From: Escherichia coli
GTDB taxonomy: Bacteria; Pseudomonadota; Gammaproteobacteria; Enterobacterales; Enterobacteriaceae
DNA: 64,000 bases
Assembly (NCBI RefSeq): GCF_044324875.1
Contig: NZ_CP172185.1
Reading direction: 5' to 3' (one strand)
Made by a program: the position numbers and the translations under genes. The notes under the pieces were generated by a model that did no database searches, was not told the origin of the DNA, and was given only the letters and a program-made list of their open reading frames with translations. Below, in pieces: positions 10,707 to 46,704 of this stretch. Numbering within the stretch: position 1 is the first letter of the stretch; each line of letters starts with the position of its first letter.

Positions 10707-10792
10707 ACATTTAAGCTGATGACCACCGCGCTTTTTATTGACCATTTTGCACGCAAACTGGAAAACCTGGCGTCGTCATCTATTCTTAAAGG

Positions 10793-10895
10793 GCAAGGCA
10801 ACTAAGCCTGCATTAATGCCAACTTTTAGCGCACGGCTCTCTCCCAAGAGCCATTTCCCTGGACCGAATACAGGAATCGTGTTCGGTCTCTTTTT
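10793..10895 (+). ncRNA. sdsR: SdsR (RyeB) Hfq-dependent sRNA; antisense RyeA/SraC expected on the opposite strand across the same locus
   Basis: Recognised sequence GCAAGGCAACTAAGCCTGCATTAATGCCAACTTTTAGCGCACGGCTCTCTCCCAAGAGCCATTTCCCTGGACCGAATACAGGAATCGTGTTCGGTCTCTTTTT, ending in a terminator hairpin plus U-tract; located in the yebY-pphA intergenic region as in K-12. Confidence 0.7.
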
Positions 10896-11029
10896 ATCTG
10901 TTAAAAGCCAGAAGCATTCCCTTCGCTGACTTTATAGTCAACCATAACACACACTCTACTGTCTGAGTCCAGCGTTTTTTAACATTCTTGTTAAGATTAT
11001 GTGATCTTTAGCGCGGGAGGAAAATATTG

Positions 11030-22352: not shown

Positions 22353-23068
22353 TGCACAGAAAACCCCCAGCTAGGCTGGGGGTTCCGGAAAGCTTTCAGC
22401 TTTGAGCCAGTTATTAAAACCCCTTTTGATTTGTTAAAACACCTTGCGGTCTGGCAACTGCAAGTGTCAAACAAGTGTCAAACAAGAAATCAAAAGGGGG
22501 TCCCAATGGGGAACGAAAAGAGCTTAGCGCACACCCGATGGAACTGTAAATATCACATAGTATTTGCGCCAAAATACCGAAGACAGGTGTTCTACAGAGA
22601 GAAGCGTAGAGCAATAGGCTGTATTTTGAGAAAGCTGTGTGAGTGGAAAAGTGTACGGATTCTGGAAGCTGAATGCTGTGCAGATCATATCCATATGCTT
22701 GTGGAGATCCCGCCCAAAATGAGCGTATCAGGCTTTATGGGATATCTGAAAGGGAAAAGCAGTCTGATGCTTTACGAGCAGTTTGGTGATTTGAAATTCA
22801 AATACAGGAACAGGGAGTTCTGGTGCAGAGGGTATTACGTCGATACGGTGGGTAAGAACACGGCGAAGATACAGGATTACATAAAGCACCAGCTTGAAGA
22901 GGATAAAATGGGAGAGCAGTTATCGATTCCCTATCCGGGCAGCCCGTTTACGGGCCGTAAGTAACGAAGTTGGATGCAAATGTCAGATCGTGTGCGCCTG
23001 TTAGGGCGCGGCTGGTAAGAGAGCCTTATAGGCGCATTTGAAAAACCTCCGGCTATGCCGGAGGATAT
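22353..23068 (+). mobile_element. IS200-like insertion sequence (about 0.7 kb; boundaries approximate)
   Basis: Contains an IS200-type tnpA; 5' region has a perfect hairpin (cccccagc-tagg-gctggggg, 22364-22382) and a long stem pairing ccccttttgatttgtt with aacaagaaatcaaaaggggg that would sequester the RBS; inserted between the htpX terminator and the yebQ stop. Confidence 0.6.
22506..22964 (+). CDS. tnpA: IS200 TnpA (HUH Y1 transposase)
   Basis: 152 aa from MGNEKSLAHTRWNCKYHIVFAPKYRRQVFY; HUH motif DHIHMLVEIPPK; near-identical to Salmonella IS200 TnpA as I recall it. Confidence 0.88.
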   Translation: MGNEKSLAHTRWNCKYHIVFAPKYRRQVFYREKRRAIGCILRKLCEWKSVRILEAECCADHIHMLVEIPPKMSVSGFMGYLKGKSSLMLYEQFGDLKFKYRNREFWCRGYYVDTVGKNTAKIQDYIKHQLEEDKMGEQLSIPYPGSPFTGRK

Positions 23069-26460: not shown

Positions 26461-27129
26461 TCCTTCCTCAATCTTGAGTAACCCCGTCGTTGAAGGGTTA
26501 CTCAATTCATCCTGATTATACGCACTGTCATGGTGCAACTGCTTCAAATTAAAACTCTGGTCTGACTTCAAATAATTATCATATTATTTATTTGCGTAAC
26601 GGGATATCAGAAAAAGATATTTAGCCCATTAATTTATTAGGATGTTTACATCGGATTTGTGATTAAGCGTGGTATTATTTATTAGCGAAACGTTTCTCTC
26701 TTGATTTTTTTGCGCATTTATCAATTTTTCTTATTTTAAATTTACAATACCTTTGGCGATTGACTTCTCTTTGGGGTGATCTATAGCCGTTAACTGACTG
26801 TTTTATGAGAAAAAGTGATATAACTTTTTATTCATTGCATAGCAGAAAATGTGATATTGCACGCACTATGTAATAACTTCTCCCACTGGCCTGGAACAAC
26901 TGAACTTATTGAACTATGTTAGAAAATACGTCAGTTTAAGTATCTGCCTGAACTGGCAAGGTTAAGCACAATGATATATCGGCGCGTATTCCGTTGCATA
27001 AGTGTGCAAAAAAAGTGGAAGACGTATCGAGATTTGTGCGTCTGATCGAGACATGTTTAAAAATGGCTTGCCATAATTAACGTTGTATGTGATAACAGAT
27101 TTCGGGTTAAACGAGGTACAGTTCTGTTT

Positions 27130-27273
27130 ATGTGTGGCATTTTCAGTAAAGAAGTCCTGAGTAAACACGTTGACGTTGAATACCGCTTCTCTGCCGAGCC
27201 TTATATTGGTGCCTCATGCAGTAATGTGTCAGTTTTATCTATGTTATGCCTGCGGGCGAAGAAAACAATCTAA
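27130..27273 (+). CDS. yobF: Small protein YobF (47 aa; missed by the ORF track)
   Basis: ATG at 27130; translation [47 protein letters not shown]; ends 12 bp before cspC. Confidence 0.75.
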
Positions 27274-27285
27274 GGAATTTTTCAA

Positions 27286-27495
27286 ATGGCAAAGATTAAA
27301 GGTCAGGTTAAGTGGTTCAACGAGTCTAAAGGTTTTGGCTTCATTACTCCGGCTGATGGCAGCAAAGACGTGTTCGTACACTTCTCTGCTATCCAGGGTA
27401 ATGGCTTCAAAACTCTGGCTGAAGGTCAGAACGTTGAGTTCGAAATTCAGGACGGTCAGAAAGGTCCGGCAGCTGTTAACGTAACAGCTATCTGA
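27286..27495 (+). CDS. cspC: Cold-shock-domain protein CspC
   Basis: 69 aa [40 protein letters not shown]1/RNP2 motifs. Confidence 0.93.
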
Positions 27496-27660
27496 TCGAA
27501 TCCACTGATCTGAAGTGTGAATACGCTTCAATCTCGCTATAAAGCCTCGTCGAATGCGAGGCTTTTTACTTTGCTTTATCTTCGCTCCAGTCGTTCGGAT
27601 ATTTGCCCGCCGCGTGATTCGCGTTACACTTGCGGCCTTTAGTGTCCTGCCGGAGTTGTC

Positions 27661-28470
27661 ATGTCGTTTTCCTGTCCACTTTGCCATCAGCCTCTTTCGC
27701 GTGAAAAAAACAGCTATATCTGTCCCCAGCGACATCAGTTTGATATGGCGAAAGAAGGGTATGTCAATCTGCTGCCCGTTCAGCATAAACGGTCTCGTGA
27801 TCCGGGGGACAGCGCGGAAATGATGCAAGCACGCCGCGCATTCTTAGATGCCGGACATTATCAGCCGCTGCGTGATGCAATTGTCGCTCAACTGCGGGAA
27901 CGGCTTGATGAAAAGGCCACAGCGGTGCTGGATATTGGCTGTGGTGAAGGGTATTACACACACGCATTTGCCGATGCGCTGCCCGAAATCACCACGTTTG
28001 GCCTGGATGTCTCGAAGGTAGCGATAAAAGCGGCGGCGAAACGCTATCCGCAGGTCACTTTTTGTGTTGCTTCCAGCCACCGTTTGCCGTTTTCCGATAC
28101 CAGTATGGACGCCATAATACGTATTTACGCGCCGTGTAAAGCAGAAGAATTAGCGCGAGTAGTGAAGCCTGGCGGTTGGGTCATTACTGCCACGCCGGGA
28201 CCGCGACATTTGATGGAGCTGAAGGGGCTGATTTACAATGAAGTACATCTTCATGCACCACATGCAGAACAACTGGAAGGTTTTACATTACAGCAGAGTG
28301 ATGAGTTGTGTTATCCGATGCGTCTTCGCGGTGATGAAGCCGTCGCATTATTGCAGATGACGCCGTTTGCCTGGCGTGCGAAGCCAGAAGTCTGGCAAAC
28401 ACTGGCAGCAAAAGAAGTGTTCGACTGCCAGACGGACTTTAATATTCACCTCTGGCAGCGTTCTTATTAA
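27661..28470 (+). CDS. rlmA: 23S rRNA m1G745 methyltransferase
   Basis: 269 aa; N-terminal Cys4 zinc-binding motif (CPLCHQ...CPQRH) and SAM-binding DIGCGEGYY. Confidence 0.9.
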
Positions 28471-29033
28471 CCGTGGAAGTGCGTCCAGAGGATCTGGACG
28501 CCGATGCCGATCAGCACCAGCCCGCCGAGAATTTCCGCTTTTTTCCCAATAATTGAGCCGATAAAGCGACCAACCATCATCCCTAATGTCGACATAATCA
28601 AGGTTGCACAACCAATGGCCAATGCGGTCGCGATAATGTTGACCTGAAGGAAAGCAAGACCAACACCCACAGCCATGGCATCCAGGCTGGTGGCAATCGC
28701 GGTGGTTACCAGTAGCCAGAAACCGTGCCGACGGCGCGGCTCTTCATCTTCATCATCAGCGCCACGAAAACCCTCAATAATCATTCGCCCGCCGAGGAAT
28801 ATCAGCAGCACAAACGCAATCCAGTGGTTCCATTCAAGGACAAACCGGCTGGCTAACATGCCCATTCCCCAGCCGATCAGCGGCGTCAGGGTTTCGACAG
28901 CACCAAAAATAAGGCCGGTTCGCAACGCTTCAGAAAATTTCGGTTTATGGAGGGTGGCACCTTTACCGATTGATGCAGCAAATGCATCCATCGACATACC
29001 AAACGCAAGAAGAATAGTAGCAGTGATATTCAT
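28467..29033 (-). CDS. mntP: Manganese efflux pump MntP
   Basis: 188 aa from [21 protein letters not shown]; the ORF track extends 18 codons upstream. Confidence 0.88.
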
Positions 29034-29089
29034 GACAACGTCCTGACCGGGGTATCCATAAAACACATCATCGCCCCCAGCAAACATGC

Positions 29090-29265
29090 ATACATGAACG
29101 ACAAACCGCGATGGTTTTCGCGTTCATGCAGGCATAGCGATTGATGTGCATATGGTCTCGCCTGACTGAAAGTGTTCAGTCCGTACGTGCCACGTTTTGC
29201 AACGAGTATGTTGACACGTACATTTCCGGAATCTGGAAATCGGCTACTCCCCAAATGAGGGCGCA
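29090..29265 (-). promoter_or_regulatory. Candidate yybP-ykoY Mn2+ riboswitch in the mntP 5' leader (boundaries approximate)
   Basis: Minus-strand leader contains GGGGAGUAGCC and other structured, GC-rich conserved-looking segments between a promoter-like region and the mntP start; a spurious 81 aa ORF in the track covers it. Confidence 0.55.
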
Positions 29266-29461
29266 ACCTTAACATATTTTGAGAATATAAAACAACTGTT
29301 GGAATATATTATTTCATTGCTTTATTGATAACGATTTTCATTTAGATTTATATATCAATGAAACGTTAAAATAAATAACAAATAAGGGAAGGGGTAATAT
29401 AGCCTAAGCTATGTCTGATTATTAAAAATACACTAAACATAGCTTTGGCTAAATTGATAAC

Positions 29462-29920
29462 TTATTGAGTTGAAACGAGAAGCTTATAAATTTTTTCCAG
29501 ATCGTCGATATTTCGAACGCGGATTAACAGCCGACGCTGTTCTAATTGCATCACCAACACGCCATCTTCCGACAAGTTCATCGCTTTGATTCGGCTATAT
29601 TCAATCCAGACATTGGCGAAGAAAAAACCTTTTTGTTTAAAGATGATCTTCGGAACGCGGATCCAGAATATATAAAAACCCATCAGAGCCAGTGCACTTA
29701 ATAACCATGTTGTTATTAGCGCGCCATGATTCGTGACGTTGTTATAGATAAGAATGACAATCAATCCGACGAAGATAACGCTATCGATGCGACCACGCCG
29801 GAGCAAAGGAATTGCCAGCAGAGTGAGGCCGTTACGGCGGGGCATGATGAACTGATCGTAGATCGCGAAGGCCAGGAGTGCGGCGATGAAAAGAATCAGT
29901 ACCAGGTCCGTGATTGTCAT
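29462..29920 (-). CDS. yobD: Inner membrane protein YobD
   Basis: 152 aa membrane protein in the expected position. Confidence 0.8.
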
Positions 29921-44973: not shown

Positions 44974-46659
44974 TTGAAGAAGGTTTGGCTTAACCGTTAT
45001 CCCGCGGACGTTCCGACGGAGATCAACCCTGACCGTTATCAATCTCTGGTAGATATGTTTGAGCAGTCGGTCGCGCGCTACGCCGATCAGCCTGCGTTTG
45101 TGAATATGGGGGAGGTGATGACCTTCCGCAAGCTGGAAGAACGCAGTCGCGCGTTTGCCGCTTATTTGCAACAAGGGTTGGGGCTGAAGAAAGGCGATCG
45201 CGTTGCGTTGATGATGCCTAATTTATTGCAATATCCGGTGGCGCTGTTTGGCATTTTGCGTGCCGGGATGATTGTCGTAAACGTTAACCCGTTGTATACC
45301 CCGCGTGAACTTGAGCATCAGCTTAACGATAGCGGCGCATCGGCGATTGTTATCGTGTCTAACTTTGCCCACACTCTGGAAAAAGTGGTTGATAAAACCG
45401 CCGTTCAGCACGTAATTCTGACCCGTATGGGCGATCAGCTATCTACGGCAAAAGGCACGGTAGTCAATTTCGTTGTTAAATACATCAAGCGTCTGGTGCC
45501 GAAATACCATCTGCCAGATGCCATTTCATTTCGTAGCGCCCTGCACAACGGCTACCGGATGCAGTACGTCAAACCCGAACTGGTGCCGGAAGATTTAGCT
45601 TTCCTGCAATACACCGGCGGCACCACAGGTGTGGCGAAAGGCGCGATGCTGACTCACCGCAATATGCTGGCGAACCTGGAACAGGTTAACGCGACCTATG
45701 GTCCGCTGTTGCATCCGGGCAAAGAGCTGGTGGTGACGGCGCTGCCGCTGTATCACATTTTTGCACTGACCATTAACTGCCTGCTGTTTATCGAACTGGG
45801 TGGGCAGAACCTGCTTATCACTAACCCGCGCGATATTCCAGGGTTGGTAAAAGAGTTAGCGAAATATCCGTTTACCGCTATCACTGGCGTTAACACCTTG
45901 TTCAATGCGTTGCTGAACAATAAAGAGTTCCAGCAGCTGGATTTCTCCAGTCTGCATCTTTCCGCAGGCGGAGGGATGCCTGTTCAGCAAGTGGTGGCAG
46001 AACGTTGGGTGAAACTGACTGGACAGTATCTGCTGGAAGGTTATGGCCTGACCGAGTGTGCGCCGCTGGTCAGCGTTAACCCGTATGATATTGATTATCA
46101 TAGTGGTAGCATCGGTTTGCCGGTGCCGTCGACGGAAGCCAAACTGGTGGATGACGACGACAACGAAGTACCACCGGGTCAACCGGGTGAGCTTTGTGTC
46201 AAAGGACCGCAGGTGATGCTGGGTTACTGGCAGCGTCCGGATGCTACCGATGAGATCATCAAAAATGGCTGGTTACACACCGGCGACATCGCGGTGATGG
46301 ATGAAGAAGGATTCCTGCGCATTGTCGATCGTAAAAAAGACATGATTCTGGTTTCCGGTTTTAACGTCTATCCCAACGAGATTGAAGATGTCGTCATGCA
46401 GCATCCTGGAGTACAGGAAGTCGCGGCTGTTGGCGTACCTTCCGGCTCCAGTGGTGAAGCGGTGAAAATCTTCGTAGTGAAAAAAGATCCATCGCTTACC
46501 GAAGAGTCACTGGTGACTTTTTGCCGCCGTCAGCTCACGGGCTACAAAGTACCGAAGCTGGTGGAGTTTCGTGATGAGTTACCGAAATCTAACGTCGGAA
46601 AAATTTTGCGACGAGAATTACGTGACGAAGCGCGCGGCAAAGTGGACAATAAAGCCTGA
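44974..46659 (+). CDS. fadD: Long-chain fatty acyl-CoA synthetase
   Basis: 561 aa from a TTG start ([25 protein letters not shown]); AMP-binding motif [11 protein letters not shown]. Confidence 0.92.
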
Positions 46660-46678
46660 GCGTTAAGTCAGTCGTCAG

Positions 46679-46704
46679 ACGCCGGTTAATCCGGCGTTTT
46701 TTTT
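46679..46704 (+). terminator. Intrinsic terminator after fadD
   Basis: cgccgg-ttaat-ccggcg followed by tttttttt. Confidence 0.55.

Follow-up and report, generated by a model that had tools for sequence, protein, structure and literature searches.

The mntP leader of an Escherichia coli chromosome as an instance of the yybP-ykoY Mn2+ riboswitch, with covariation in both switch conformations

Gene order around mntP

The window, a 64,000-nucleotide stretch of contig NZ_CP172185.1 (assembly GCF_044324875.1), belongs to an E. coli chromosome and carries the gene order manZ-yobD-mntP-rlmA-cspC, which is identical around mntP in K-12 MG1655. The start and coordinates of mntP were obtained by transferring the PGAP annotation from a 99.8% identical genome; in this mapped annotation yobD lies upstream of mntP, and rlmA is convergent with it. 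The ATG of mntP occupies 29033-29031 on the minus strand, and its product is named 'manganese efflux pump MntP' by PGAP. The leader therefore adjoins the gene of a Mn2+ exporter, the downstream coding sequence expected of the riboswitch class discussed below. The elements that delimit the leader are as follows.

28467-29033, minus strand: mntP coding sequence, Mn2+ exporter, 188 aa (PGAP and K-12 annotation; Pfam PF02659 Mntp, 1.3e-55)
29041-29044, minus strand: Shine-Dalgarno-like AGGA, 7 nt before the mntP AUG (from the sequence; AGGA, UGGA or GAGG across species)
29271-29276, minus strand: -10-like hexamer TATGTT, which includes the ATG (29275-29273) of the 81-aa ORF (from the sequence; ends 8 nt upstream of 29262)
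29030-29275, minus strand: 81-aa mechanical ORF, not a gene (ORF finder only)

From inside yobD to the first mntP codons, over 480 nt, the leader region is 99% identical to that of K-12 MG1655 with 0 indels. Of the nine substitutions, three fall in the promoter region and four in the central hairpin; the P4 loop and the stretch between the Shine-Dalgarno (SD) sequence and the AUG have one each. Within the aptamer the sole difference is a C/T exchange in the P4 loop, while the platform differs at 5 positions; these differences are strain-level variation only. A 1.1-kb query around the leader is matched in 5422 of 5426 complete E. coli genomes, and the annotated features in the query region of those genomes are rlmA, mntP and yobD. 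For the comparative analysis, one genome was taken per species with MntP, giving 80 enterobacterial loci, of which 78 leaders are aligned.

Several annotation details accompany this locus. The convergent genes rlmA (27661-28470, plus strand) and mntP (28467-29033, minus strand) share 4 nt at their stop codons. A 206-aa version of mntP, starting at an in-frame ATG within the expression platform (29087), appears in the mechanical ORF list; the start in K-12 and PGAP is the ATG at 29033 (188 aa), and the tblastn matches in all 80 species start there. In NZ_CP027440.1 the numbering of locus tags jumps from yobD (RS04930) to mntP (RS04940): C6W69_RS04935, which would fall exactly on the leader and promoter, is missing and may be a withdrawn or unlisted feature. 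Further along, yobF (approximately 27130-27273) and cspC (approximately 27286-27495) are placed by the mapped annotation. The PGAP annotation of NZ_CP027440.1 names this cold-shock gene beside yobF 'cspE' (387-596 of its locus), and in K-12 it is cspC, a naming inconsistency only.

Leader boundaries and transcript start

The preliminary description had put the distance between the likely promoter and the mntP start at about 230 nt. A mntP UTR of 225 nt was reportedly given by Waters in 2011. The published 5' UTR measures 229 nt (Prakash 2024, PMC11647493), which agrees with the proposed leader length and places +1 at approximately 29262. Because the two figures differ, the transcription start is given here as 29258-29262. 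Upstream of it, the hexamer TATGTT at 29276-29271 is a candidate mntP -10 element. A simple sigma-70 scan does not call it; the scan returns four other weak sites against 2.3 expected and is uninformative.

An element characteristic of yybP-ykoY riboswitches had also been claimed for the minus-strand leader, and GGGGAGTAG is indeed present at 29252-29244 on that strand. It occurs once in the 64-kb window, against 0.08 copies expected from 100 shuffles, and 76 of the 77 loci with enough flanking sequence carry it ahead of mntP, the remaining locus having GGGGAGTAA. The distance between GGGGAGTAG and the mntP ATG varies from 164 to 223 nt across species.

Architecture of the aptamer

The 5' part of the leader, approximately its first 110 nt, forms a four-way junction built from six helices and two metal-site loops, with the following elements.

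29148-29258, minus strand: Mn2+ aptamer, four-way junction (RF00080 match, folding, covariation)
29258-29251/29155-29148, minus strand: P1.1
29250-29245 and 29159-29156, minus strand: L1
29244-29242/29162-29160, minus strand: P1.2
29240-29235/29227-29222, minus strand: P2
29221-29215/29189-29183, minus strand: P3.1
29214-29205 and 29192-29190, minus strand: L3
29204-29201/29196-29193, minus strand: P3.2
29181-29175/29170-29164, minus strand: P4

Folded alone, the aptamer is predicted to adopt exactly this four-way junction, at -37.5 kcal/mol. Each of the six helices is 86-100% paired in the 78 leaders and each contains pairs changed on both sides; specifically, all 7 of the 7 P4 pairs are changed on both sides, and P1.1 contains 3 compensatory pairs. 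The class consensus is carried by L1 (GGGGAGUAG / GAGA) and L3 (UCAACAUACU / UGG; also CAACAUAC), and both loops, including the A-minor adenosine of L1, are invariant in the 78 enterobacterial leaders bar single exceptions. With nucleotide 1 set at 29258, positions 11 and 48 are A29248 and A29211, in agreement with A11 and A48 of Stephen 2025 (PMC12153347). Across the alignment as a whole, an invariant aptamer core is followed by the hypervariable central hairpin of the platform, and conservation is again very high in the 3' platform.

Rfam covariance-model scores

The expected match of the yybP-ykoY covariance model to the minus-strand leader is found by E-value and is missed at the curated cut-off. 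An E-value scan with RF00080 (Manganese, yybP-ykoY) matches 29260-29164 on the minus strand with 41.9 bits and E=6e-10 in a 601-nt search, spanning the full model (1-177); the curated gathering score of RF00080 is 45, which leaves the window leader 3 bits short. At Rfam gathering thresholds the whole window contains no Manganese-family match. In the RF00080 alignment, L1 (UUGGGGAGUAGCCG) and L3 (GUCAACAUACU) reproduce the consensus exactly; the model, in the alignment shown, stops at P4 and leaves the 3' GAGACC strand unused. The experimentally validated K-12 leader itself scores 41.6 bits, and RF00080 is matched by all 20 of 20 orthologues (K-12 and 19 further loci) at 35.5-55.6 bits, 9 of the 20 reaching at least 45. 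Since the validated K-12 leader scores 41.6 and all 20 loci match, the sub-threshold score appears to be a limit of the model for the enterobacterial short-P4 subclass and not evidence against membership.

This near-miss has a practical consequence for genome scans, in which the curated Rfam threshold misses an experimentally validated riboswitch by 3 bits. Because the RF00080 threshold is missed, no feature is placed on the leader by default cmscan or PGAP, and the empty space is taken up by mechanical ORF tracks.

The gathering-threshold scan of the window yields five matches, namely SraC/RyeA, SdsR/RyeB, the cspA model, STnc490 and sroD. The antisense pair SraC/RyeA (minus strand) and SdsR/RyeB (plus strand) lies at 10755-10899, STnc490 at 22362-22496 and sroD at 46618-46703, the latter two on the plus strand and all above their gathering thresholds. 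The cspA-thermoregulator model scores 139 bits at 27110-27570 on the plus strand, over yobF-cspC. As the aligned positions run into Csp coding sequence, much of this score probably reflects csp coding homology and is not evidence of a thermosensor.

Two alternative conformations of the leader

Downstream of the aptamer, the expression platform offers alternative partners to the 3' half of P1.1. Its elements are given below.

29137-29155, minus strand: switch strand, the P1.1 3' half plus 11 nt downstream (CCAUAUGCACAUCAAUCGC), which pairs with the P1.1 5' strand (ON) or with 29074-29056 (OFF)
29085-29136, minus strand: variable central hairpin of the platform (CAUGAACG...CGUUCAUG), predicted in the minimum-free-energy (MFE) fold
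29056-29074, minus strand: anti-P1.1 strand (GCGAUGAUGUGUUUUAUGG), the 3' strand of the OFF switch helix, and the platform-hairpin loop in ON
29046-29081, minus strand: platform hairpin GCUGGGG (29081-29075) / CCCCGGU (29052-29046), from covariation

Two mutually exclusive structures, ON and OFF, were written by hand and their pairs counted over the 78 leaders. The ON structure combines P1.1, P1.2, P2, P3.1, P3.2 and P4 with the platform hairpin GCUGGGG/CCCCGGU. In this configuration 96.4% of cells are paired and 21 pairs are changed on both sides, with 0 of 500 shuffles as good, while slid controls reach 29-44% paired. The platform hairpin is itself paired in 99.3% of cells, with 2 pairs changed on both sides. 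The OFF structure keeps the same core and pairs the P1.1 3' strand plus 11 nt with 29074-29056, and UUGGGG with CCCCGG; 98.7% of cells are paired and 25 pairs are double-changed over the 78 leaders. Its switch helix, 29155-29137 / 29074-29056, is 98.7-100% paired, and 9 of its 11 variable pairs are compensatory. The alternative partner of CCCCGG is the L1/P1.1 5' strand UUGGGG (29254-29249), and this long-range UUGGGG/CCCCGG helix of OFF is 100% paired with 0 double changes. The CCCCGG segment, two nt upstream of the SD sequence, is thus paired in both conserved states, with different partners. Together, these counts provide clean covariation for both switch conformations.

Thermodynamic predictions favor OFF, the ligand-free fold. 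The RNAalifold consensus of the alignment is the OFF structure, long-range helix included, and the MFE fold of the full window leader is again OFF, at -88.6 kcal/mol (z=-4.3 against shuffles). The OFF ensemble is predicted to be more stable than ON in 78 of 78 species (-86.2 versus -74.8 kcal/mol), a modelled preference that would fit an ON-switch that needs ligand and co-transcriptional trapping. Moreover, the ON and OFF pairings found by covariation agree with the published model, in which the 3' half of the P1.1 'switch helix' has an alternative partner in the platform (Stephen 2025, PMC12153347). In the same study the mntP platform is a 'single helix' that folds at approximately 175 nt, with the riboswitching point at approximately 205 nt; the central hairpin at 29085-29136 corresponds to this 'single helix'.

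The central hairpin varies among relatives, being 12 nt shorter in the cryptic Escherichia clades and absent in Enterobacter, Kosakonia and Cedecea. Enterobacter instead extends P4 by approximately 15 nt, and in Cedecea the P3.2 loop carries an insertion. The four differences between the window and K-12 in this hairpin make the inner stem CGCGA/UCGCG perfect, and the stem is flagged by a terminator scan at 29122-29107. This terminator-like hairpin was set aside, as it belongs to the variable central hairpin and is unconserved.

The 81-codon frame over the leader

The mechanical ORF at 29275-29030 runs over the whole leader, and the question is whether it could encode a genuine small protein whose translation is coupled to that of mntP by an ATGA overlap. 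Its frame is open for 81 codons with a TGA that overlaps the mntP ATG, and 77-81 open codons are retained in Escherichia species and the cryptic clades; this openness among close Escherichia relatives is attributed to a region that has diverged too little for stop codons to arise. Elsewhere it is disrupted or missing: E. albertii retains 30 codons, and Salmonella, Enterobacter, most Citrobacter and most Klebsiella do not keep it intact either. Among ORFs that start with ATG and share the frame closing on the mntP ATGA, a length of 60 codons or more is reached only in Escherichia and three other species, and the same-frame ORF measures 0-12 codons in Salmonella, Enterobacter and most Citrobacter.

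The way in which the leader varies also argues against translation. Leader lengths of 164-223 nt, with length differences distributed 21/33/24 modulo 3, leave the 81-aa frame unconserved, and the column entropy by codon position in this frame (0.430/0.421/0.451) has no third-position excess. Every conserved block of the leader is accounted for by RNA pairing with covariation. Additionally, the ATG of the ORF sits inside the -10-like hexamer, 11-15 nt upstream of the +1 reported in the literature. The predicted product matches no Pfam family at E<=0.1, the ORF is unannotated in K-12 and in PGAP genomes, and literature searches for a small protein or uORF in the mntP leader gave reference-list mentions only. 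A genuine coupled gene has next to no probability on this evidence. The earlier judgment that 29030-29275 is non-coding thus holds on four counts: an unconserved frame, no codon periodicity, no Pfam family and a start upstream of the reported +1.

Ribosome access and short upstream frames

How the two conformations would reach the ribosome is less clear-cut in the modelling. Over the 78 species, thermodynamic modelling predicts a probability of being unpaired of 0.47 (ON) versus 0.44 (OFF) for the SD sequence, and an accessibility of 0.46 (ON) versus 0.60 (OFF) for the AUG. SD accessibility modelled in this way has no consistent difference between ON and OFF, and the step of ribosome-binding-site (RBS) occlusion is unconfirmed by the model. 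Published probing likewise reports RBS reactivity without a Mn-dependent change (Stephen 2025, PMC12153347). Direct SD occlusion is not evident in the comparative data and modelling, which echoes an open point of that 2025 probing study.

An alternative route, which the modelling makes conceivable and which is on balance unlikely, is that the riboswitch, instead of hiding the SD sequence, controls access to a standby or S1 landing site for the ribosome or, in E. coli, to a uORF of 9-13 codons. The Mn-bound (ON) state is predicted to free the 19-nt strand 29074-29056, 12-30 nt upstream of the SD sequence. If true, gating of a standby site, an S1 site or a uORF would explain the published lack of a Mn-dependent RBS change.

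The uORF version would add a coupling layer, with an AUG at 29072, 29069 or 29060, 9-13 codons and a UGA overlapping the mntP AUG; these start codons are part of the switch strand, and the OFF helix would conceal them. In E. coli the uORF stop does overlap the mntP start, AUGG at 29060-29057 does not vary among the 78 species, a G-run lies ahead of the upstream AUGs, and the annotated RBS is the one whose probing gave no Mn-dependent change (Stephen 2025, PMC12153347). The invariance of AUGG is, however, explained by its pairing with the invariant CCAU of P1.1, and the G-run is paired in the ON hairpin. The first uORF AUG becomes GUG, ACG or GCG in 16 of 78 leaders with RNA pairing preserved, while AAUG in 4 more keeps the AUG. 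Moreover, relative to the mntP AUG, the invariant AUG falls in each of the three frames (34/22/22 leaders), so that translation from it would yield a coupled uORF in Escherichia, extend MntP in frame in Enterobacter and read into mntP out of frame in Klebsiella. The literature searched contains no reported uORF in the mntP leader. As a coupling layer the uORF is very unlikely, and it is kept only as a low-probability, E. coli-specific add-on. The separate reading in which the invariant AUGG starts a conserved uORF or extends the N-terminus was rejected because of the 34/22/22 spread.

MntR- and Fur-like sites of the promoter

Upstream of the leader, a scan for MntR and Fur boxes, proposed earlier as a check, reveals two MntR-like palindromes and one Fur-like box whose positions are conserved across genera.

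29436-29455, minus strand: distal MntR-like palindrome (AATTTAGCCAAAGCTATGTT), 14/16 against the mntH-type operator
29396-29415, minus strand: proximal MntR-like palindrome (GACATAGCTTAGGCTATATT), 14/16 against the mntH-type operator
29321-29345, minus strand: Fur-like box or boxes (CTAAATGAAAATCGTTATCAATAAA), 14/19 at 29327-29345, overlapping 13/19 at 29321-29339

MntR-like matches were scored against the mntH-type palindrome AACATAGC-N4-GCTATGTT, a consensus reportedly due to Patzer and Hantke in 2001, and Fur-like matches were scored against a 19-bp Fur consensus. The two palindromes are the only sites of at least 13/16 in the 64-kb window. The proximal one lies at approximately -161 from GGGGAGTA in nearly all Enterobacteriaceae examined, and the pair, at approximately -161 and -204 from GGGGAGTA, is found in 65 of 76 species, with a second box of at least 12/16 approximately 42 bp upstream of the first. 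The Fur-like box is weak by score alone, with 8 matches of at least 14/19 in the window, and AAATGAAAATCGTTATC is fixed at -92 to -94 from GGGGAGTA in 76 of 76 species. MntR and Mn-loaded Fur are reported to bind the mntP promoter and to relieve H-NS repression (review, PMC8632737); the positions and sequences of the two palindromes (29455-29396) and of the box (29345-29321) suggest that these are the MntR and Fur sites.

Matches to microRNA-precursor models at 29385-29466 on both strands (E 0.02-3) were rejected as an artefact of the long inverted repeat of the MntR boxes, because the two palindromes and their spacer together form a hairpin-shaped inverted repeat.

Regulation by Mn2+ and comparison with known riboswitches

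The region 29262-29034 on the minus strand is almost certainly the mntP leader, of approximately 229 nt, with the E. coli yybP-ykoY (RF00080) Mn2+ riboswitch, and the 81-aa ORF over it a chance frame. The proposal of a Mn2+ riboswitch in this leader is thereby borne out by near-identity to K-12 (99%, no indels) and by covariation of the aptamer helices and the switch helix. The mntP riboswitch is already known and well studied in E. coli, to which the window adds an ordinary instance. For the window, the element is to be read as a textbook mntP riboswitch and the overlying ORF ignored. Experimental characterisation of the E. coli mntP (yebN) Mn2+ riboswitch is reportedly due to Dambach in 2015.

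The regulation described in the literature, for K-12, would apply here as follows. MntR and Fur would activate transcription from the upstream promoter. Binding of Mn2+ between L1 and L3 would stabilise P1.1 during transcription, the stabilised P1.1 would hold the platform in a translationally active fold and so raise MntP, and Mn2+ would also partially relieve Rho-dependent termination in the leader and early coding sequence. Published work on E. coli mntP describes a Mn-dependent translational riboswitch together with Rho-dependent termination (PMC11647493), and reports stabilisation of P1.1/L1 by Mn while the native polymerase is transcribing (PMC12153347). The K-12 aptamer has been crystallised (PDB 4Y1M; Price 2015, as cited in PMC12153347). 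Mn2+ binding and raised expression are reported for the K-12 sequence, which differs from the window at one aptamer base (PMC11647493, PMC12153347, PMC9603457). Induction by MnCl2 in K-12 is approximately 7-16-fold.

These reports also bear on the reading that the leader is mainly a Rho-dependent attenuator or a pH sensor, with Mn2+ sensing secondary. Bicyclomycin raises mntP expression approximately 20-fold, above the Mn effect, but Mn relief needs the first 19 nt, which hold P1.1/L1 (PMC11647493), so that Rho acts downstream of the riboswitch decision. According to one group, alkaline pH strengthens both Mn binding and activation (PMC9603457), yet alkaline pH induced alx only and not mntP in the 2025 study (Stephen 2025, PMC12153347). 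With the aptamer core invariant across genera as well, a leader governed chiefly by Rho or pH is highly improbable, and Mn2+ sensing remains the preferred primary function.

Compared with the K-12 mntP riboswitch, the element in the window has the same locus, gene order and length, and scores 41.9 versus 41.6 bits against RF00080. The second yybP-ykoY member of E. coli, alx (SraF/PRE), lies outside the window, where GGGGAGTAG is a single copy. It lacks P2 and forms a three-way junction with a different L3, in contrast to the four-way junction of mntP (PMC12153347). Furthermore, P4 of alx holds an intrinsic terminator and the alx platform includes a P6 terminator, whereas mntP has a single-helix platform, and alx responds to alkaline pH (PMC12153347). 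The review literature holds that the mechanisms of Gram-positive and Gram-negative Mn2+ riboswitches differ (review, PMC8632737). The type members of RF00080, L. lactis yoaB and B. subtilis yybP/ykoY, share with mntP the four-way junction, the L1/L3 metal sites and the ON-switch logic by which Mn2+ raises expression of an exporter. The platforms of these Gram-positive members (yoaB, yybP/ykoY) are intrinsic transcription terminators. The mntP platform, in contrast, is without a terminator and acts on translation and on Rho access (PMC11647493).
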